Program-made: the position numbers and the translations under genes
Assembly: GCF_003334335.1 (NCBI RefSeq)
Contig: NZ_QOWQ01000073.1
Direction: 5' to 3' (one strand)
Length of the DNA stretch: 7,140 bases
Source of the DNA: Escherichia coli
GTDB taxonomy: Bacteria; Pseudomonadota; Gammaproteobacteria; Enterobacterales; Enterobacteriaceae
Shown: positions 776 through 7,140 of the stretch, piece by piece
Position numbering within the stretch: position 1 is the first letter of the stretch
How the letters are laid out: the number at the start of each line of letters is the position of its first letter
The notes under the pieces: model-generated
Database searches by the model: none
The model's input: the letters and a program-made list of their open reading frames with translations, nothing else
Told to the model about the DNA's origin: nothing

Positions 776-982
776 ATGAATACCCCAGTTTCACTGATGG
801 ATGACCAGATGGTCGACATGTCGTTTATCACTCAGCTGACCGGCCTGACCGATAAATGGTTTTACAAGCTCATCAAGGATGGTGCCTTTCCTGCCCCCAT
901 CAAACTGGGCCGTAGCTCCCGATGGCTGAAAAGTGAAGTGGAAGCCTGGTTGCAGGCACGTATTACACAGTCCCGTCCGTAA
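776..982 (+). CDS. alpA: AlpA-family prophage/island transcriptional regulator (small HTH DNA-binding protein), 68 aa
   Basis: ORF in the 722..982 frame; I start it at the internal ATG 776 because GGAGG (762-766) sits 9 nt upstream. The translation MNTPVSLMDDQMVDMSFITQLTGLTDKWFYKLIKDGAFPAPIKLGRSSRWLKSEVEAWL has the AlpA-family pattern (HTH followed by G-R-x-x-RW-x-x-SEV/I-x-x-W) as I recall it. Size (~70 aa) fits. Confidence 0.85.
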   Translation: MNTPVSLMDDQMVDMSFITQLTGLTDKWFYKLIKDGAFPAPIKLGRSSRWLKSEVEAWLQARITQSRP

Positions 983-1067
983 TTCCTGACCGTTATCCGT
1001 TCAACCGCAGCAAAGGCATGATCCGGCCCCCGGAGGCATTTTGCTGCGCGCTAAAGGAGAGAATATT

Positions 1068-1640
1068 ATGCAAAAACTTGAAAACCGGTGTGAGCTGCTG
1101 CTCATCCAGCATCAGAAATGGATGACAAACGTGACGAGGCTTATCGTCGCTCATGGAATGGGGGCTCCGCATCTTCATGGTTATCACCGCCTGACCCTGG
1201 CCCACTTTTTTCTGCCAGAAAAAGGCACCATCATCTCAGTGGCACCACAGGGACTCTATCAGGTCGTCAACCCGGGAACACCACCGTTCATTCCTGCCAT
1301 TCAGGAAGGGTTAATGACCAGCATTCAGACCCATGAAATCATGCTGCTTACACATTTTAATCTGGGCGGCGTTTTACTCAGTGAGCTACATCGTCTGGGT
1401 GAAAACCGGCTGGCAAACAGGCTGAACAGCCTGCTCCGGCGTTTCAACGATCGTGATCTCTACCACACGCTGATATGGCTGTGCTGGTATGATCTGATGT
1501 GTGCTCACTCCATGCAGCCCTGGACTGAAGAGTTAAAGCATAAATCACATGCAGAGCTTGAAAACTGGGCTGTGGCGCGCAAACGGGAAAAGCGCGAGCT
1601 GGAACTGATGATTGACGAGTACCTGTTATACGCCTGTTGA
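1068..1640 (+). CDS. Hypothetical protein, 190 aa, function unknown (island-associated)
   Basis: Long ORF (track 1041..1640). I prefer ATG 1068 over the TTG at 1041 because AGGAGA (1054-1059) lies 8 nt upstream. Protein-like composition, no internal stops for 573 nt. I do not recognise the family from the sequence. Confidence 0.6.
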   Translation: MQKLENRCELLLIQHQKWMTNVTRLIVAHGMGAPHLHGYHRLTLAHFFLPEKGTIISVAPQGLYQVVNPGTPPFIPAIQEGLMTSIQTHEIMLLTHFNLGGVLLSELHRLGENRLANRLNSLLRRFNDRDLYHTLIWLCWYDLMCAHSMQPWTEELKHKSHAELENWAVARKREKRELELMIDEYLLYAC

Positions 1641-1760: not shown

Positions 1761-3251
1761 TTATAAGCCAAAGGATTGCTCATGCCATCTTATCAGTTTC
1801 TGGCTGTAGCACGCATTCAGTTCAGGCAGCGTGATATTGTTTATTTCGGAAAGCAGGACATAGGTGGTTTTTCCTTCCTGCACGACAGAGAGCCTGAGTT
1901 GAGATGCAAGAATGTTCAGCAGGACGTTCAGCTTTTTCCTGTTCCGGAACCGGCCCGGGCCACACTGGAGAATATAATTTTTCCTGACACGGGGCGGGCA
2001 TTCTCCGCGGCACTCCTCAATGAGCCAGTCGAGCAGCTCCCGGGCGTCCTGCAGCTGCAGTTCAGATTCGTCAGGTAACGCAAATAATTTTTTATATTCA
2101 TCTGTGTACCACGAACTTATTACGACAGCAGACGTCATGATATCGGCAGAGATTTTCCCTTCACCCTGACTGAAATACTGCAATAACGCAGCAATTCTCG
2201 CAATGTTTTCTGTTTTTTTTGAAACATGCCCCCGAAACTGGCTTAAGGGTCCGGAAGGAGACAAATCCTGCTCCAGAACATTATAGTGATCAATAAATAT
2301 TTTTTGCGCTTCAGGAGAAAAATGCAGACAATAACGTTCATCCTTACTGGATTTTTCAATACTGCCTCTGGCCAGTTCCATTAATCGTTCATGAAATGCC
2401 GTTAATGATCCTCCCGGGGTCACAGCTCCGTTAATAAAGCGTTTCCCCTGCGTGGTGGCAGGTTTACTGATTAGACAACGGGCAAGAAAACCACTGTCCC
2501 TGGCAACAGAACCTTTTCGCTCCATATATCGGTCAAAAAGACCGGGTTGTACCATGAGGGATAATGTCATTCTAGCATTTTCAATCATCTGTTCGGGTTC
2601 ATTCTTTCTGTCCACCGACAATACGGAGCCATCCCACATTTTGTTAATAAAAGGCAGCTCAGACAGGGTATACCCATCAAATATTATACCGGCTTCATCA
2701 GACATGATACCCACTGAACGCCACTGACCACAAAGCTGATCTTTAATTGCTGCTGTCGTGGCATCATTAAAAATGAATTTATATCTTACAGGTTTTTCCC
2801 CTCTGTTTTTCTGAAGCGCTTCCAGTTGTCTGAGCGTTTCTGACTCATCCGCGCCTTTGCGGAGTTCTTTATTCAGTTTTGACAACAATGCTTTTTTCTG
2901 CGCCTTTAAAAGCTCTTCCTTATTTTTCCATATCGTCAGTTCATTTTTGTGTCTGGAATATAACAGCATCTCCTGCTGGTACAGGGGCTCCATTAATAAT
3001 TTGTCCACTGCGGTTTTTCGTTCTCCGGACTCAGCAAGCGTCAGTAAGAAAAGAGAAACCGGCCCCCGCAGTGTATTCAGTCTGCAGACATCAATCAGAT
3101 TCTGGCAGACAAGTGAAACAGCGCCCAGGGCAGATGCTGCCACAAGCCCCAGGGGAGCCTGCGTGATTTGCTGAGCTTCAATAACGGCATCACGAATGAG
3201 TGGAGGCAGCGAGCTCAGGGGAAACTCATCAGGATACTGAAAGTATGGCAT
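1761..3251 (-). CDS. YfjI-like DUF3987-domain protein (mobile-element associated, possibly replication-related), 496 aa
   Basis: Minus-strand ORF 1761..3269. I start it at the ATG at 3251 (MPYFQYPDEF...) because a GAGGT Shine-Dalgarno sits 5 nt upstream on the minus strand. The N-terminal region (FPLSSLPPLIRDAVIEAQQITQAPLGLVAASALGAVSLVCQNLIDV) resembles DUF3987/YfjI proteins as I recall them. The many short ORFs overlapping it are antisense or alternate-frame artefacts. Confidence 0.8.
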   Translation of the reverse strand: MPYFQYPDEFPLSSLPPLIRDAVIEAQQITQAPLGLVAASALGAVSLVCQNLIDVCRLNTLRGPVSLFLLTLAESGERKTAVDKLLMEPLYQQEMLLYSRHKNELTIWKNKEELLKAQKKALLSKLNKELRKGADESETLRQLEALQKNRGEKPVRYKFIFNDATTAAIKDQLCGQWRSVGIMSDEAGIIFDGYTLSELPFINKMWDGSVLSVDRKNEPEQMIENARMTLSLMVQPGLFDRYMERKGSVARDSGFLARCLISKPATTQGKRFINGAVTPGGSLTAFHERLMELARGSIEKSSKDERYCLHFSPEAQKIFIDHYNVLEQDLSPSGPLSQFRGHVSKKTENIARIAALLQYFSQGEGKISADIMTSAVVISSWYTDEYKKLFALPDESELQLQDARELLDWLIEECRGECPPRVRKNYILQCGPGRFRNRKKLNVLLNILASQLRLSVVQEGKTTYVLLSEINNITLPELNACYSQKLIRWHEQSFGL

Positions 3252-4084
3252 AATGACCTCACAACACACAGAACATAAAGTACCGCAACTATTGCTACTA
3301 ATAGCAAAAATAGCAGCAGAATCAATACAGGATAAAAATTTCTGTCGATTTTCAGATTAAATAATAACCATTCGGTATTTTGTCGCTAAAGAATGTTAGA
3401 ATGAATCTGTGCGTCTACGGGCGCTCTCCGGAACACACATGTTGATTAATTTTCACACAACAACGTACCAGCAAAAAGCATCATCCAGGGTATTGCAGGT
3501 ACGGGTTTCCTGCCGGGAATAAACATAAACAGTTTCCCCGGAGTAACGCTTTCAGAAAACTGCCCTCCTGAAGAAGAATAAAATAAAGAAGATGACAGTT
3601 CCTGCACTGAATGCTGAGTACAATATTCTATGGACAGGATGACATTTTTATAAATAACAAAAACCATTTAATACTGATACATCAATAAAATACTTCCTCC
3701 CTGCTGACACAGATAAAATGCAACATTTTTTCTTCAAATACTTCTGTATAATCGCCAGCCAATGATGAGAATGGATTAAAATAACACTTCTTCGACAAAC
3801 ACAAAAACCAGCCTTCATTTTCACATCATCATCCAGTTTTAATTAAACCCTGACGAGCGACAGTATTTCAGTTCAGGAATTAAAAGCCAGCTATTACTCA
3901 GTAAAAACACCACCAACTAATAATATCTCAGCAGATATTTCCTGACCAGGATGACACATTTATTAAAGATTTTTAACAGGACACTTCACATTACTGAACG
4001 CTATTCCGACAGTATCACTACACAAATAAAAAAGGGAACTGGATAAATATTCATGCCGGAAGAATGGTGTAACAAAAGCATTTA

Positions 4085-4221
4085 ATCATTACGTGCGTAT
4101 TCCTCTCTATTCGATCACGGTTTGGCCAAACCGTGATCGATTCAGATGCCATTTTGCAAGTACGCATGACCCGGAAGGGAAACACTTAACAACATGGTAT
4201 CAACAGATATCATTACGTGCG
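4085..4221. repeat. 13-bp perfect direct repeat ATCATTACGTGCG (4085-4097 and 4209-4221) bracketing the 30-bp palindrome
   Basis: Read directly. Both copies are identical over 13 bp with similar T/C-rich tails (TATTCCTCTCTAT vs CACTCTTAT). They are 124 bp apart. Confidence 0.85.
4111..4140. repeat. 30-bp perfect palindrome TCGATCACGGTTTGGCCAAACCGTGATCGA with two symmetric GATC sites (candidate operator or RNA hairpin)
   Basis: The sequence equals its own reverse complement over exactly 30 bp (checked base by base); it does not extend, since 4110 and 4141 are T and T. GATC at 4113-4116 and 4135-4138 are the only GATC sites in the 3270-4540 spacer. Confidence 0.9.
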
Positions 4222-4357
4222 CACTCTTATAAAAATACACAGCAGAAGCAAGATAACTCTAAACGTAAATTTAATATCTCCCACTGACTGCCCCGACAAT
4301 ATACTGAAAAATACTCACCTCAGTAAACATAAACACACCTGATAATCAGGCTGCAAG

Positions 4358-4441
4358 ATGAATATTTTTCTCCTTTACGGAGTAATCAGCCTGCTGTTTA
4401 ACAATAACCGCGTATTTTCATGGAAGGATATCACCCAATAA
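4358..4441 (+). CDS. Candidate small ORF, 27 aa (MNIFLLYGVISLLFNNNRVFSWKDITQ); possible leader peptide or small hydrophobic protein
   Basis: ATG at 4358 to TAA at 4439-4441, verified codon by codon. Hydrophobic N-terminal half. A weak AGG lies 7 nt upstream and a 13-bp palindrome CCTGATAATCAGG (4338-4350) sits just before the start. A terminator-like hairpin follows about 85 nt downstream. The ORF is too short for statistical support. Confidence 0.15.
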   Translation: MNIFLLYGVISLLFNNNRVFSWKDITQ

Positions 4442-4527
4442 CGGATAACTCCTGCCCTCCTTCATGTTAATACGCAACATCCCCATCGATTCCAAACAAT
4501 TTCAGACAGATATTATCTCCGTGAATC

Positions 4528-4566
4528 CCCCGCCACCTTTCCGGTGTGCGGGGTTTTGTCTTTTTT
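4528..4566 (+). terminator. Intrinsic (rho-independent) terminator-like hairpin plus U-tract, immediately upstream of the GTPase start codon
   Basis: GC-rich stem 4528-4537 (CCCCGCCACC) pairing with 4543-4553 (GGTGTGCGGGG) with one bulged T and a 5-nt loop TTTCC, followed by TTTTGTCTTTTTT (4554-4566). The GTPase ATG is at 4583. Confidence 0.6.
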
Positions 4567-4582
4567 CACCGGGAATACATGT

Positions 4583-5455
4583 ATGAATCCGTCTGATGCC
4601 ATTGAGGCAATTGAAAAACCACTTTCTTCCCTGCCTTACTCGCTTTCCCGTCACATCCTGGAACATCTGCGCAAACTCACCAGTCACGAACCCGTGATTG
4701 GCATTATGGGTAAAAGCGGGGCCGGTAAATCCTCACTCTGTAATGCACTGTTTCAGGGGGAGGTCACCCCGGTCAGTGATGTTCACGCCGGCACCCGGGA
4801 AGTGCGGCGCTTCCGTCTGAGTGGCCACGGTCACAGCATGGTTATCACTGACCTGCCCGGGGTGGGCGAGAGCCGGGACAGGGATGCAGAGTATGAAGCC
4901 CTGTACCGTGACATTCTGCCTGAACTGGACCTGGTGCTGTGGCTGATTAAAGCCGATGACCGGGCCCTGTCTGTGGATGAGTATTTCTGGCGACACATCC
5001 TGCAGTGCGGACATCAGCAGGTGCTGTTTGTGGTGACACAGGCCGACAAAACGGAGCCCTGCCATGAATGGGATATGGCCGGCATTCAGCCCTCTCCCGC
5101 ACAGGCACAGAACATTCGCGAAAAAACGGAGGCGGTATTCCGTCTGTTCCGGCCTGTACATCCGGTTGTGGCCGTATCGGCCCGCACCGGCTGGGAACTG
5201 GATACGCTGGTCAGTGCGCTCATGACAGCGCTTCCCGACCATGCCGCCAGTCCCCTGATGACCCGCCTGCAGGACGAGCTGCGCACGGAATCTGTCCGCG
5301 CTCAGGCCCGTGAGCAGTTTACCGGTGCGGTGGACCGGATATTTGACACAGCGGAGAGCGTCTGTGTTGCCTCTGTTGCACGCACGGTTCTGCGTGCCGT
5401 CCGTGACACAGTGGTCTCTGTTGCCCGCGCGGTATGGAACTGGATCTTCTTCTGA
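4583..5455 (+). CDS. yeeP: YeeP/YfjP/YkfA-family GTPase of cryptic prophages/islands (ribosome-binding GTPase-like), 290 aa, apparently intact
   Basis: ORF 4544..5455. Start set at ATG 4583 (MNPSDAIEAIEKPL...) with a weak GGGAA 7 nt upstream; GTG 4544 is an alternative. P-loop GKSGAGKSS (G1), DLPGVGE (G3, DxxG) and TQADK (G4-like) are present. Its position directly upstream of the Ag43 gene matches the yeeP-flu arrangement in E. coli K-12 as I recall it. Confidence 0.85.
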   Translation: MNPSDAIEAIEKPLSSLPYSLSRHILEHLRKLTSHEPVIGIMGKSGAGKSSLCNALFQGEVTPVSDVHAGTREVRRFRLSGHGHSMVITDLPGVGESRDRDAEYEALYRDILPELDLVLWLIKADDRALSVDEYFWRHILQCGHQQVLFVVTQADKTEPCHEWDMAGIQPSPAQAQNIREKTEAVFRLFRPVHPVVAVSARTGWELDTLVSALMTALPDHAASPLMTRLQDELRTESVRAQAREQFTGAVDRIFDTAESVCVASVARTVLRAVRDTVVSVARAVWNWIFF

Positions 5456-5526
5456 ACCTGTTGTGGATGATGTCCTCCTTGCCTCTGAGTCTGCTCACAA
5501 AAGCGCTGTTTTCGTTACTGTCTCTC

Positions 5527-5555
5527 TTGTCCGTGCAATAGCTTGATAATAGAAT
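5527..5555 (+). promoter_or_regulatory. Candidate sigma70 promoter for agn43/flu (-35 TTGTCC, 17-bp spacer, -10 TAGAAT)
   Basis: TTGTCC at 5527-5532 and TAGAAT at 5550-5555, separated by 17 bp. The predicted start site is about 5562, at the first GATC, which fits the known overlap of the promoter with the OxyR/Dam site. Not experimentally positioned here. Confidence 0.45.
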
Positions 5556-5560
5556 AAAAC

Positions 5561-5596
5561 GATCGATACCTATTTTATCGATCGTTAATATCGATC
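5561..5596. promoter_or_regulatory. Ag43 phase-variation switch: three clustered Dam GATC sites (5561-5564, 5580-5583, 5593-5596) within the presumed OxyR binding region
   Basis: Sequence CGATCGATACCTATTTTATCGATCGTTAATATCGATCGTT read directly, about 190-230 bp upstream of the Ag43 start codon. Three GATC sites inside the OxyR operator are the established hallmark of the agn43 Dam/OxyR epigenetic ON/OFF switch. Confidence 0.8.
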
Positions 5597-5760
5597 GTTA
5601 TGCTAATAATAACTCCTGTTAGCAACGTGCACAGATACACACAGACATGAGATTCAGGGAACAACAGAGCCACACGTCAGAAACTTCCGTCAGCCGGACC
5701 TCCGGCACTGTAACCCTTTACCTGCCGGTATCCACATCTGTGGATACCGGCTTTTTTATT
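5562..5760 (+). ncRNA. isrC: agn43 5' leader / IsrC-like small RNA (promoter-proximal transcript ending at the leader terminator)
   Basis: Inferred: a transcript starting near 5562 from the candidate promoter would end at the strong terminator at 5724-5760, giving a product of about 200 nt. In E. coli K-12 the sRNA IsrC is annotated between yeeP and flu, as I recall. The ends are not determined from sequence. Confidence 0.4.
5724..5760 (+). terminator. Intrinsic terminator in the agn43 leader (12-bp perfect stem, 4-nt loop, T-run)
   Basis: GCCGGTATCCAC (5724-5735) pairs perfectly with GTGGATACCGGC (5740-5751), loop ATCT, followed by TTTTTTATT (5752-5760). It lies 29 nt upstream of the Ag43 ATG. 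Confidence 0.75.
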
Positions 5761-5788
5761 CACCCTCACTCTGATTAAGGAAATGCTG

Positions 5789-7140
5789 ATGAAACGACAT
5801 CTGAATACCTGCTACAGGCTGGTATGGAATCACATTACGGGCGCTTTCGTGGTTGCCTCCGAACTGGCCCGCGCACGGGGTAAACGTGGCGGTGTGGCGG
5901 TTGCACTGTCTCTTGCCGCGGTCACGTCACTCCCGGTGCTGGCTGCTGACATCGTTGTGCACCCGGGTGAAACAGTGAATGGCGGAACACTGGTAAACCA
6001 TGACAACCAGTTTGTATCCGGAACAGCTGATGGCGTGACTGTCAGTACCGGGCTTGAGCTGGGGCCGGACAGTGACGAAAACACCGGCGGGCAATGGATA
6101 AAAGCGGGTGGCACAGGCAGAAACACCACTGTCACCGCAAATGGTCGTCAGATTGTGCAGGCAGGAGGAACTGCCAGTGATACGGTTATTCGTGATGGCG
6201 GAGGGCAGAGCCTTAACGGACTGGCGGTGAACACCACGCTGGATAACAGAGGTGAGCAGTGGGTACACGGGGGAGGGAAAGCTGCCGGTACAATTATTAA
6301 CCAGGATGGTTACCAGACCATAAAACATGGCGGACTGGCAACCGGAACCATCGTCAACACCGGTGCAGAAGGTGGTCCGGAGTCTGAAAATGTGTCCAGC
6401 GGTCAGATGGTCGGAGGGACGGCTGAATCCACCACCATCAACAAAAATGGCCGGCAGGTTATCTGGTCTTCGGGGATGGCACGGGACACCCTCATTTACG
6501 CCGGTGGTGACCAGACGGTACACGGAGAGGCACATAACACCCGGCTGGAGGGGGGTAACCAGTATGTACACAACGGTGGCACGGCAACAGAGACGCTGAT
6601 AAACCGTGATGGCTGGCAGGTGATTAAGGAAGGAGGAACTGCCGCGCATACCACCATCAACCAGAAAGGAAAGCTGCAGGTGAATGCCGGCGGTAAAGCG
6701 TCTGATGTCACCCAGAACACGGGCGGTGCACTGGTTACCAGTACAGCTGCAACCGTCACCGGCACAAACCGCCTGGGAGCATTCTCCGTTGTGGCGGGTA
6801 AGGCTGATAATGTCGTACTGGAAAATGGCGGACGTCTGGATGTGCTGAGCGGACACACAGCCACTAATACCCGCGTGGATGATGGCGGAACGCTGGATGT
6901 CCGCAATGGTGGTACCGCTACCACCGTATCCATGGGGAATGGCGGGGTACTGCTGGCCGATTCCGGGGCCGCTGTCAGTGGTACCCGGAGCGACGGAACG
7001 GCATTCCGTATCGGAGGCGGTCAGGCGGATGCCCTGATGCTGGAAAAAGGCAGTTCCTTCACACTGAACGCCGGTGATACGGCCACGGATACCACGGTAA
7101 ATGGCGGACTGTTCACCGCCAGGGGCGGCACACTGGCGGG
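5789..7140 (+). CDS. flu: Antigen 43 (Ag43) self-associating autotransporter adhesin, 5' part (signal peptide plus passenger beta-helix); runs off the window end
   Basis: ATG 5789 with AAGGA (5777-5781) 7 nt upstream. Translation begins MKRHLNTCYRLVWNHITGAFVVASELARARGKRGGVAVALSLAAVTSLPVLAADIVVHPGETVNGG..., matching the Ag43 N-terminus including the extended autotransporter signal peptide. The frame is open to 7140 and shows the ~19-residue Gly/Thr/Asn-rich repeats typical of the passenger domain. Confidence 0.9.
   Translation, partial: MKRHLNTCYRLVWNHITGAFVVASELARARGKRGGVAVALSLAAVTSLPVLAADIVVHPGETVNGGTLVNHDNQFVSGTADGVTVSTGLELGPDSDENTGGQWIKAGGTGRNTTVTANGRQIVQAGGTASDTVIRDGGGQSLNGLAVNTTLDNRGEQWVHGGGKAAGTIINQDGYQTIKHGGLATGTIVNTGAEGGPESENVSSGQMVGGTAESTTINKNGRQVIWSSGMARDTLIYAGGDQTVHGEAHNTRLEGGNQYVHNGGTATETLINRDGWQVIKEGGTAAHTTINQKGKLQVNAGGKASDVTQNTGGALVTSTAATVTGTNRLGAFSVVAGKADNVVLENGGRLDVLSGHTATNTRVDDGGTLDVRNGGTATTVSMGNGGVLLADSGAAVSGTRSDGTAFRIGGGQADALMLEKGSSFTLNAGDTATDTTVNGGLFTARGGTLA
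6100..7140 (+). repeat. Degenerate ~57-bp (19-20 codon) periodic repeats encoding the Ag43 passenger beta-helix rungs
   Basis: Recurring units such as AGGTASDTVIRDGGGQSL / GGGKAAGTIINQDGYQTIK / NGGTATETLINRDGWQVIKEGGTAAHTTINQKG at roughly 19-20 residue spacing in the translation. These explain the long spurious antisense ORFs in this stretch. Confidence 0.7.

Follow-up and report, generated by a model that had tools for sequence, protein, structure and literature searches.

An intact YeeP/YfjP/YkfA-family GTPase gene beside agn43 in an Escherichia coli island

The closest described relatives of the gene examined here are yeeP of Escherichia coli K-12 (b1999; CP4-44), which is annotated as a pseudogene of 426 nt, and its paralogues yfjP (CP4-57) and ykfA (CP4-6). 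A literature search on yeeP, yfjP, and ykfA found no functional study and no paper assigning a function to any member of the family; in one preprint, a yfjP deletion was tested for persister waking and was not followed up there. A comparable gene order has been described for the SRL PAI of Shigella flexneri, in which an AlpA-like gene and hypothetical genes are followed by a YeeP-like GTPase (97% to YeeP) and then Ag43 (orf46-orf47), the module running on as GTPase-Ag43-YfjQ-YfjX-RadC (PMC6980539). The stretch of E. coli DNA analysed in this study (7,140 nt, hereafter the window) shows the same layout, with upstream island genes for an AlpA-like HTH protein and YfjI, but stops inside agn43. 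An intact GTPase gene beside Ag43 is nothing unusual, and the finding as stated alters little. Our overall explanation, to which we assign a probability of roughly 0.7, is that the window carries an intact island-backbone GTPase of the YeeP/YfjP/YkfA family, that its adjacency to Ag43 is positional, and that K-12 yeeP is truncated.

The GTPase gene and its motifs were located as follows.
4583..5455, + strand: CDS of the YeeP/YfjP/YkfA-family GTPase, 290 aa, intact (translation, Pfam, RefSeq, alignments, and predicted model)
4709..4732, + strand: G1/P-loop GKSGAGKS, aa 43-50 (invariant columns G43, G46, G48, K49, and S50)
4850..4861, + strand: G3 DLPG, aa 90-93 (invariant D90, P92, and G93; DLPGVGE read in the sequence)
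5036..5050, + strand: G4-like TQADK, aa 152-156 (Q153, D155, and K156 nearly invariant)

Translation of 4583-5455 on the + strand gave 290 codons without a stop, and the CDS of WP_016238810.1 in a genome 99.9% identical to the window (NZ_CP116067) has identical coordinates; the protein thus already carries the RefSeq label GTPase family protein. The motifs GKSGAGKSS (aa 43-51), DLPGVGE (aa 90-96), and TQADK (aa 152-156) fell on columns that are invariant or nearly so in a family alignment of 52 sequences (G43, G46, G48, K49, S50, T71, D90, P92, G93, Q153, D155, K156, and S199), in which the G4-like consensus is [NT]QxDK. All the family signatures in this alignment, that is, G1 GxxGxGKS, T71, G3 DxPG, [NT]QxDK, and SA, were present in the window protein. 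The residue after DLPG is Val, not Gln, from which we take the protein to be a hydrophobic-substituted (HAS-type) GTPase.

The window protein could be aligned from the first to the last residue with K-12 YfjP and YkfA (287 aa; 51% identity), and 291-aa proteins of Yersinia, Serratia, Klebsiella, and many other Enterobacterales covered 100% of the query. Even distant relatives were alignable up to residue 289, so that colinearity with the family members of about 287-291 aa holds from end to end. These alignments, together with that of K-12 YeeP, agree with the first-pass annotation, which had described the GTPase as full-length, with all G motifs and no frameshift. The Pfam match to MMR_HSR1 (E = 5.7e-14), a dN/dS of 0.13-0.27, and 155 clusters of relatives at E <= 1e-30 indicate a real gene rather than a chance ORF. 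The G motifs and the C-terminal VVSVARAVW..F tail are the same as in YfjP and YkfA, and the island type and upstream layout are common to the K-12 copies; in contrast, the window protein contains four additional residues behind the G4 motif, and agn43 lies downstream of its gene, whereas a DUF932 gene directly follows yfjP and ykfA.

That K-12 yeeP is a pseudogene had been noted in the first-pass annotation, and the comparison bore this out. The DNA homology of K-12 yeeP begins only at window position 4903; consequently, codons 108-290 are kept and G1-G3 are lost. Over the surviving part, YeeP is 98% identical to the window protein, which is complete. A second truncated GTPase copy was found in K-12 CP4-57, at the ypjI pseudogene. 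The implied rarity of an intact copy beside Ag43 was contradicted by the genome counts: 4072 of 5426 complete E. coli genomes had a copy that spanned 80% or more of the gene, and 1523 genomes had the full gene contiguous with a window-type agn43 leader, compared with about 360 genomes in which a truncated GTPase lay beside agn43, those sampled being K-12-type. The 90%-identity cluster of the 290-aa proteins held 18,190 member sequences. CFT073 and ATCC 25922 are among the strains with this island. K-12 yeeP is a lineage-specific 5' truncation, the K-12 state being the exception and the intact state the usual one. At this locus, the K-12 reference is not representative, and its pseudogene annotation should not be carried over to other strains. 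The paralogues YfjP and YkfA in K-12 could in principle replace YeeP in trans.

One gene order around the GTPase gene was shared by Y. ruckeri, K. aerogenes, Serratia, E. coli, and K-12 CP4-57 and CP4-6. In the relatives, the conserved same-strand module comprised the GTPase, a variable cargo slot, DUF932, an antirestriction gene (KlcA/ArdB-like), RadC, DUF987, and CbeA/CbtA. The slot bordered by the GTPase held a CBASS-like set, AbpAB and RnlAB, a type ISP restriction enzyme, or a NERD helicase; in plasmid pNDM-CIT, which has the same gene order, a CBASS-like set (nucleotidyltransferase, ThiF, MPN, and SAVED) was located just upstream. Furthermore, the GTPase was almost the sole cargo of mobilisable plasmids of 4.8-5.9 kb; the 5.9-kb plasmid (NZ_CP100742) has it in an operon after EcsC and a hypothetical gene. 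In the genome 99.9% identical to the window, an IS66 element lies downstream of agn43. These arrangements indicate that the GTPases of about 290 aa are a backbone gene of the P4-integrase/AlpA-type ('CP4-like') islands of Enterobacterales. The window copy is an intact, expressed-type member and would be the first gene of the module. In the E. coli YeeP clade, the slot is mostly filled by an Ag43/Cah-type autotransporter, which has a phase-variable promoter and an IsrC leader/terminator of its own. In this island family, which is very common, the GTPase marks the border at which a variable cargo slot (with defence genes in several relatives) meets a conserved right arm, and the Ag43/Cah adhesins sit in one fixed slot behind it.

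Upstream of the GTPase gene, the following elements were found.
4490..4516, + strand: putative promoter of the GTPase gene, -35 TTCCAA (4490-4495), 15-nt spacer, and -10 TATTAT (4511-4516), proposed from the conserved box
4501-4517, + strand: conserved box TTCAGACAGATATTATC, containing the -10 of the putative promoter
4528..4566, + strand: leader hairpin of 10 bp with one bulge (4528-4553), then the T-run TTTTGTCTTTTTT (4554-4566) (fold energy and hairpin scan)

In E. coli, Yersinia, Klebsiella, Serratia, Hafnia, Enterobacter, and others, the family GTPase genes have this conserved box ahead of them, and the DNA farther upstream is unrelated. For K-12 ykfA and yfjP, an upstream site of the same layout, TTGAAA-15-TATCAT, appears in a published list of RpoD-holoenzyme binding sites (PMC3946193). 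A second box in K-12 CP4-57 was considered as a separate use of the element and set aside, as it is the 5' end of the truncated GTPase copy at ypjI.

The hairpin and T-run resemble an intrinsic terminator and end 17 nt ahead of the GTPase ATG. The hairpin of the window, with a fold energy of -19.5 kcal/mol, is by itself unexceptional for its composition (z = -1.64). Across the family, a hairpin and T-run with the stem end 24-32 nt before the ATG were present in 34 of 46 distinct upstream regions, compared with 81 of 383 control ORFs; two more family regions had them at 9 and 23 nt, giving 36 of 46 in all. In the YfjP-type subfamily, compensatory changes were found at all 11 stem pairs, and the stem sequence was wholly different in Serratia and K-12 yfjP. 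RNAalifold detected no structure in a mixed alignment of all leaders, in which MAFFT had misaligned the two types of hairpin. With the subfamilies separated, the YfjP-type stem was recovered, but the YeeP-type alignment was still out of register; hence, the per-sequence hairpin scan and the control set were used instead. By the definition adopted in this analysis, namely, the box TTCAGAyAkATATyAT and a hairpin/T-run about 24-32 nt before the ATG, positions 4501-4517 and 4528-4566 of the window carry the family feature. No Rfam family was matched to the leader element, and an Rfam E-value search of 3200-4700 gave a chance-level match only.

The GTPase gene has a conserved promoter-like box of its own followed by a hairpin/T-run, an element kept across genera and absent from Rfam. 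It resembles an undescribed attenuator; we put the odds at about even that the hairpin attenuates transcription, in which case expression of the module would be low or conditional. In P. aeruginosa, AlpA is an antiterminator that combines a site embedded in the promoter with a terminator located downstream (PMC7969949). The island AlpA-like HTH protein in the window matched Pfam Phage_AlpA at 6.3e-9, and one might speculate, by analogy, that it acts as an antiterminator in the same way. In a solved-structure search with this protein, the sole matches were to TorI and an unrelated AlpA-family protein, and the expected cryo-EM chains of P. aeruginosa AlpA were not among them.

Subsequently, the possible role of the protein was considered from its predicted fold. 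The model showed an Era/EngB-like G domain with helical N- and C-terminal flanks and a strongly amphipathic helix at the C-terminal end, and the catalytic Gln after G3 is lacking. Whole-protein fold matches were obtained to Irga6/IIGP1, Irgb6/Irgb10, LeoA, BDLP, and IniA with a TM of about 0.55 (TMq 0.52-0.57), and the family profile matched Irgb10 at E = 1.5e-14. These matches are suggestive of a relationship to IRG at the superfamily level only. The Pfam IIGP match (PF05049) had an E of 0.017 and covered only residues 24-99, which does not place the protein in IRG/IIGP. Likewise, the PADLOC LeoBC match (1.8e-8) aligned residues 10-126 with profile positions 52-162 of 601, a partial match that does not place a 290-aa GTPase among the dynamin-like/Eleos proteins (LeoA and LeoBC; over 550 aa, with stalk/paddle). 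The window GTPase is about 100-400 residues shorter than IRGs and dynamin-like proteins, and the likeness appears to lie in the predicted fold rather than in demonstrated membership. When the GTPase and the genes upstream of it were scanned with PADLOC and PHROGs, only weak G-domain matches and no functional label were obtained. From the model, we tentatively suggest that the protein could be a nucleotide-dependent dimerising switch, Era/IRG/dynamin-like, that serves the mobile element and neither ribosome assembly nor Ag43 export.

A more specific possibility is that the GTPase is a stand-alone conflict protein of mobile elements, acting in phage defence, exclusion, or counter-defence as a small IRG/dynamin-like protein that oligomerises on a membrane or other target. 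The fold matches and the LeoBC match described above point in this direction, as do the position of the gene, which borders a slot with defence-type gene sets and heads a module with antirestriction and RadC genes, and its presence as nearly the only cargo on the small mobilisable plasmids. However, the PADLOC matches are confined to the G domain, no defence family claims the protein, the fold similarity is modest, and the gene was absent from the phage collection searched; a conflict role is accordingly possible but rather doubtful. An extended version, in which the YeeP/YfjP/YkfA proteins are small prokaryotic IRG/dynamin relatives in mobile-element conflict, the module is silenced by the terminator at 4528-4566 until an island factor (e.g., the AlpA-family protein, 776-979) bypasses it on induction or transfer, and Ag43 is inserted cargo, would be a long shot.

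The label '50S ribosome-binding GTPase' corresponds to a different reading, in which the protein, like Era, EngA, and EngB, is associated with ribosomes and modulates their assembly or translation for the island. These TRAFAC-class ribosome-assembly GTPases are its closest G-domain sequences and structures. In contrast to them, the window GTPase has no KH domain, second (tandem) G domain, or other RNA-binding domain, is predicted to have helical flanks, and is encoded by a gene restricted to mobile elements. The NCBIfam equivalog scores were all far under the cut-offs (Era, 51.5 bits versus 237; Der (EngA), 46 versus 306.7; YsxC (EngB), 37.9 versus 124.45). Furthermore, its G1 lacks the Asn that is typical of potassium-dependent Era/TrmE-class enzymes. 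A ribosomal role is therefore improbable. Most E. coli genomes carry the gene, frequently as several copies, and the predicted fold would favour an IRG/dynamin-like description over the usual 'ribosome-binding' one.

The first-pass annotation had also proposed that the GTPase might be functionally coupled to Ag43 and had suggested RT-PCR across 5455-5789. As a small correction, agn43 starts at 5789, so that the intergenic stretch is 5456-5788. It corresponds to the known agn43 control region and differs from that of K-12 by no more than a few substitutions and small indels.
5527..5555, + strand: sigma-70 promoter of agn43/isrC, TTGTCC-17-TAGAAT (promoter scan)
5559..5764, + strand: agn43 leader, IsrC/Rfam IS102 RNA (Rfam RF00124, terminator scan, and GATC positions)
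5561, 5580, and 5593, + strand: the three GATC sites of the agn43 leader (sequence)
5724-5751, + strand: stem of the intrinsic terminator of the agn43 leader, followed by a T-run (terminator scan)
5789..7140, + strand: 5' part of agn43 (autotransporter adhesin Ag43), running past the window end (RefSeq of the 99.9%-identical genome, with coordinate offset)

The leader matched RF00124 over its full length with 255.5 bits (gathering score, 46); together with the leader terminator and the three GATC sites that follow the promoter, this identifies the region as the agn43 control region/IsrC. In K-12, isrC is annotated at the same place, and identical promoter hexamers have been listed for it (PMC3946193). 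A passage in one report, citing Wallecha 2014, describes flu expression as under antitermination control of IsrC (PMC5389530).

Coupling in the sense that the GTPase is co-transcribed with agn43, or that Ag43 depends on it for expression, secretion, or phase variation, draws on a tight linkage. In E. coli, 1872 genomes had a window-type agn43 leader and 1883 had the GTPase 3' half together with that leader, so that virtually all such leaders have a GTPase 3' end upstream. From an evenly spaced sample, we estimate that an Ag43/Cah-family gene adjoins the best-matching GTPase copy in about 85-90% of E. coli genomes, divergent Cah-type autotransporters likewise lying downstream of the GTPase. The terminator scan found none in the interval from the GTPase stop (5455) to the agn43 promoter, which makes read-through to the agn43 leader physically possible. 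However, agn43 has its own promoter, GATC sites, and terminated leader, and these are the same in K-12 beside the truncated yeeP. The K-12 Ag43 is the functional archetype of this adhesin, and Ag43 expressed alone confers aggregation in heterologous hosts.

The partner also differs elsewhere. Downstream of a 96%-identical GTPase, dynamin/YjcZ/patatin genes take the place of Ag43, no autotransporter lies downstream of the Yersinia, Klebsiella, and Serratia orthologues or of YfjP and YkfA, and the family members on the small mobilisable plasmids (32-44% identical) have no autotransporter gene. Moreover, when the agn43 regulatory region was fused to T7 RNAP with a kanR cassette between it and yeeP', methylation-dependent expression states persisted (PMC4872104), that is, the region was functional when detached from yeeP'. 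We attribute the tight linkage to common descent, which does not formally bar a functional tie. Since a phase-variable promoter and an IsrC leader/terminator come with the autotransporter itself, its adjacency to the GTPase is best read as positional and inherited by descent rather than as a partnership; functional coupling is not supported, and we regard it as highly improbable.

Finally, selection on the gene was examined. Comparison with the 96%-identical E. coli copy gave a dN/dS of 0.25; for Yersinia, Klebsiella, and Serratia, where dS was saturated, the values were 0.13-0.17. That the GTPase is a functionless relic, its frame left open by chance in a young, lately spread island, might be suggested by the 95-99% identity of the E. 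coli copies, which leaves little time for decay, and by truncated copies such as K-12 yeeP and ypjI, but is scarcely credible against these cross-genus ratios, a length and motifs kept down to 30-45% identity, and the conserved promoter/leader element. The GTPase gene is under purifying selection and is selectively maintained. An antisense ORF within it (4733-5242, 169 aa) was set aside as a by-product of the high G+C content.

The ORF at 4583-5455 was translated without interruption into a protein of 290 aa carrying GKSGAGKSS (aa 43-51), DLPGVGE (aa 90-96), and TQADK (aa 152-156), confirming the first-pass annotation, which had read it as free of frameshifts with all of these GTPase motifs. 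In a family alignment of 52 sequences, extending down to ~30% identity, the motifs sat on invariant or near-invariant columns (G43, G46, G48, K49, S50, T71, D90, P92, G93, Q153, D155, K156, and S199). K-12 YfjP and YkfA (287 aa) were 51% identical to the window protein and could be aligned with it end to end, and full-length alignments were also obtained with 291-aa proteins of Yersinia, Serratia, Klebsiella, Citrobacter, Enterobacter, Erwinia, and Pectobacterium. A search without a word index returned 155 clusters (50% identity) at E ≤ 1e-30; most were 290-310 aa, save fragments or fusions close to the query, and many aligned as far as residue 289. In comparison with an E. coli copy 96% identical to the gene, the dN/dS ratio (Nei-Gojobori) came to 0.25, and with the orthologues of Yersinia, Klebsiella, and Serratia to 0.13-0.17, indicating that the frame is maintained by selection. 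The description of K-12 yeeP as a pseudogene was also borne out: b1999 is so annotated (426 nt), it shares DNA homology with the window only from position 4903 onward, and codons 108-290 are kept in frame with G1-G3 lost.

The description of the gene as intact is correct, yet such a gene is ordinary and already annotated. Among the 5426 complete E. coli genomes, 4072 carried a copy with at least 80% gene coverage at ≥95% identity; the median number of GTPase gene places per genome was two, and the 90%-identity cluster of the 290-aa form held 18,190 member sequences. Window 4300-5900 was matched at 99.9% by the E. coli DETEC-S792 chromosome and at 90-99% by more than 4500 further complete genomes. 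The full gene was contiguous with the window-type agn43 leader in 1523 genomes, compared with 1883 genomes for the GTPase 3' half plus this leader; therefore, about 19% of such junctions have a truncated gene. The truncated junctions in the sampled rows were of the K-12 type and came from 4.6-Mb K-12-like or laboratory genomes. Gene coordinates were taken from the RefSeq annotation of the 99.9%-identical genome and converted to window positions.

Genes of the window
776-982: AlpA-like helix-turn-helix regulator (Pfam Phage_AlpA, 6.3e-9)
1068-1640: hypothetical protein (RefSeq annotation of the closest genome)
1761-3251, minus strand: YfjI-family protein (PHROG 'DNA helicase' family match, 3e-81)
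4583-5455, exactly: 'GTPase family protein' WP_016238810.1 (RefSeq)
5789, start: agn43 (RefSeq annotation of the closest genome)

The same order of AlpA-like gene, hypothetical genes, GTPase, and Ag43 is found in the Shigella SRL pathogenicity island, where YfjQ, YfjX, and RadC follow (PMC6980539). The hypothetical protein between the AlpA-like gene and yfjI (1041-1640, plus strand; 190-199 aa) had no match in PHROGs and PADLOC scans. In the closest genome (NZ_CP116067; coordinates of locus L001), the IS66-family element ISEc49 follows agn43 in place of yeeR/DUF932 (10791-13094), and an IS3 element and an hha fragment lie upstream of the AlpA-like gene (116-1770); this island copy is therefore rearranged at both ends.

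Functional coupling of the GTPase to the neighboring Ag43, which had been suggested as well, was not supported, since agn43 has its own control region and the GTPase occurs elsewhere without an autotransporter. The stretch between the two genes (5456-5788) is the control region already known for agn43.

Elements of the agn43 control region
5527-5555: sigma-70 promoter of agn43, TTGTCC-17-TAGAAT (promoter scan)
5561, 5580, and 5593: three GATC sites
5559-5764: IsrC (Rfam IS102), full-length match, score 255.5 bits (gathering score 46)
5724-5751: terminator stem within the IsrC leader (terminator scan)

K-12 isrC is listed with identical promoter hexamers (PMC3946193), and a passage of PMC5389530 citing Wallecha 2014 describes flu expression as controlled via IsrC antitermination. 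When a 525-bp agn43 region with the first 48 bp of agn43 was fused to T7 RNAP, a kanR cassette lying between it and yeeP', methylation-dependent expression states were still transmitted (PMC4872104). Furthermore, K-12 keeps the promoter, GATC sites, and leader of agn43 although the adjoining yeeP is truncated. Because a terminator scan between the GTPase stop and the agn43 promoter (5455-5527) found none, transcription could physically read through into the agn43 leader; expression of agn43 does not depend on such read-through. Two codons before the annotated agn43 start there is an in-frame ATG (5783-5791, ATGCTGATGAAA); K-12 reads AAGCTGATGAAA at this place, and the start at 5789 is therefore the conserved one.

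Seen from the Ag43 side, the linkage was essentially complete (window-type leader in 1872 genomes against 1883 for the GTPase 3' half plus leader), and divergent Cah-type genes were likewise found behind the GTPase. From the GTPase side, it is not obligatory. DUF932 genes directly follow K-12 YfjP and YkfA. Behind the orthologues in Yersinia, Klebsiella, and Serratia stand WYL, YfjS/YafY, IrmA, or YfjT genes, with DUF932, antirestriction, RadC, DUF987, and CbeA/CbtA coming next. Most simply, the GTPase would head a conserved module of the island, cargo would enter the slot behind it, and Ag43/Cah would be the cargo that spread along with the E. coli YeeP clade. On four E. coli contigs (L005-L008; ~9091-13444 in L005), a 96%-identical GTPase had behind it, in place of Ag43, genes for a dynamin-like protein of 794 aa, a YjcZ-family protein, and a patatin-like phospholipase, a set that may be defence-type cargo in the slot of Ag43.

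The interval between YfjI/YfjJ and the GTPase was also variable in content: it held a CBASS-like gene set (nucleotidyltransferase, ThiF, MPN, and SAVED) on pNDM-CIT, AbpAB and RnlAB in K-12 CP4-57, and a type ISP restriction enzyme or a NERD helicase in other related elements. Window 3270-4582 fills the same slot with 1.3 kb of 34-40% G+C and no RefSeq-annotated gene; its wider conservation was restricted to the last ~95 nt. This interval was kept at ≥80% coverage in 1812 E. coli genomes. At 4111-4140, ~440 bp upstream of the GTPase start, it contains a perfect 30-bp palindrome, TCGATCACGGTTTGGCCAAACCGTGATCGA, with a GATC site in either arm, which among the loci compared was present only in the window and the closest genome.

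Some novelty is confined to a conserved leader element and an IRG-like fold, neither of which belonged to the original claim on the GTPase and Ag43. When the 550 nt 5' of the start codon were aligned for six loci, only the last ~95 nt were related.

Leader element (4490-4566)
4501-4517: conserved box TTCAGAyAkATATyAT, in the window TTCAGACAGATATTATC
4511-4516: -10-like TATTAT, with TTCCAA 15 nt upstream
4528-4553: GC-rich hairpin, fold energy -19.5 kcal/mol
4554-4566: T-run after the hairpin, ending 17 nt ahead of the ATG

The promoter layout is the same as that of 'TTGAAA-15-TATCAT' before K-12 ykfA and yfjP, which is among the RpoD-holoenzyme binding sites from genomic SELEX (PMC3946193). 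Transcripts starting at this promoter, if it is used, would include the hairpin. The box pattern matched almost only at the pre-GTPase position (103 loci). Of 46 distinct upstream regions of the family, 36 had a hairpin with T-run, including those of Vogesella and Aquitalea genomes, against only 81 of 383 control ORFs of the same loci; in 34 of the 36, the stem ended 24-32 nt before the ATG. The window hairpin by itself was unexceptional for its composition (z = -1.64). In the YfjP-type subfamily, all 11 pairs of the predicted 11-bp stem had at least one compensatory change, and the stem sequences in Serratia and K-12 yfjP were wholly unlike that of the window. The element, which is conserved across Enterobacterales and had no match in an Rfam search, looks like a promoter with an intrinsic terminator behind it, a putative attenuator of the island GTPase module, and this candidate appears to be undescribed so far. 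In the ypjI pseudogene region of K-12 CP4-57 (20455-20575 of L003), a second GTPase copy is present in truncated form, as a 5' end with its own promoter box and hairpin that reads MSNSEGW and then a stop; two such modules have therefore left remnants in CP4-57.

The AlphaFold model of the GTPase, which was confident (pLDDT 93.7), showed three parts.

Parts of the AlphaFold model
aa 3-34: two N-terminal helices
aa 38-228: G domain
aa 236-289: C-terminal helical hairpin

By G domain, the nearest relatives were EngB, Era, and EngA, but all NCBIfam equivalog scores were far under the cut-offs and no RNA-binding domain was present. The label '50S ribosome-binding' is no more than the name of the Pfam G-domain family, and a literature search on yeeP, yfjP, and ykfA found no known function for any family member. 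No transmembrane segment was predicted, and the last helix was strongly amphipathic (hydrophobic moment 0.71). Together with the Val, not Gln, directly after G3, the amphipathic helix, the sub-cut-off scores, and the missing RNA-binding domain weakly favor an Era/IRG/dynamin-like switch that would dimerise depending on nucleotide and serve the mobile element. Nearly the sole cargo of Col-type mobilisable plasmids of 4.8-5.9 kb was a GTPase of this family with 32-44% identity to the window protein, which argues for a self-contained GTPase function benefiting a mobile element. In the 5.9-kb plasmid NZ_CP100742.1, the gene stood last in an apparent operon, behind those for an EcsC-family protein and a hypothetical protein in this order (2495-4889), and in the small mobilisable Col-type plasmid CP099030.1 (4.8 kb) it lay at 3402-4283.
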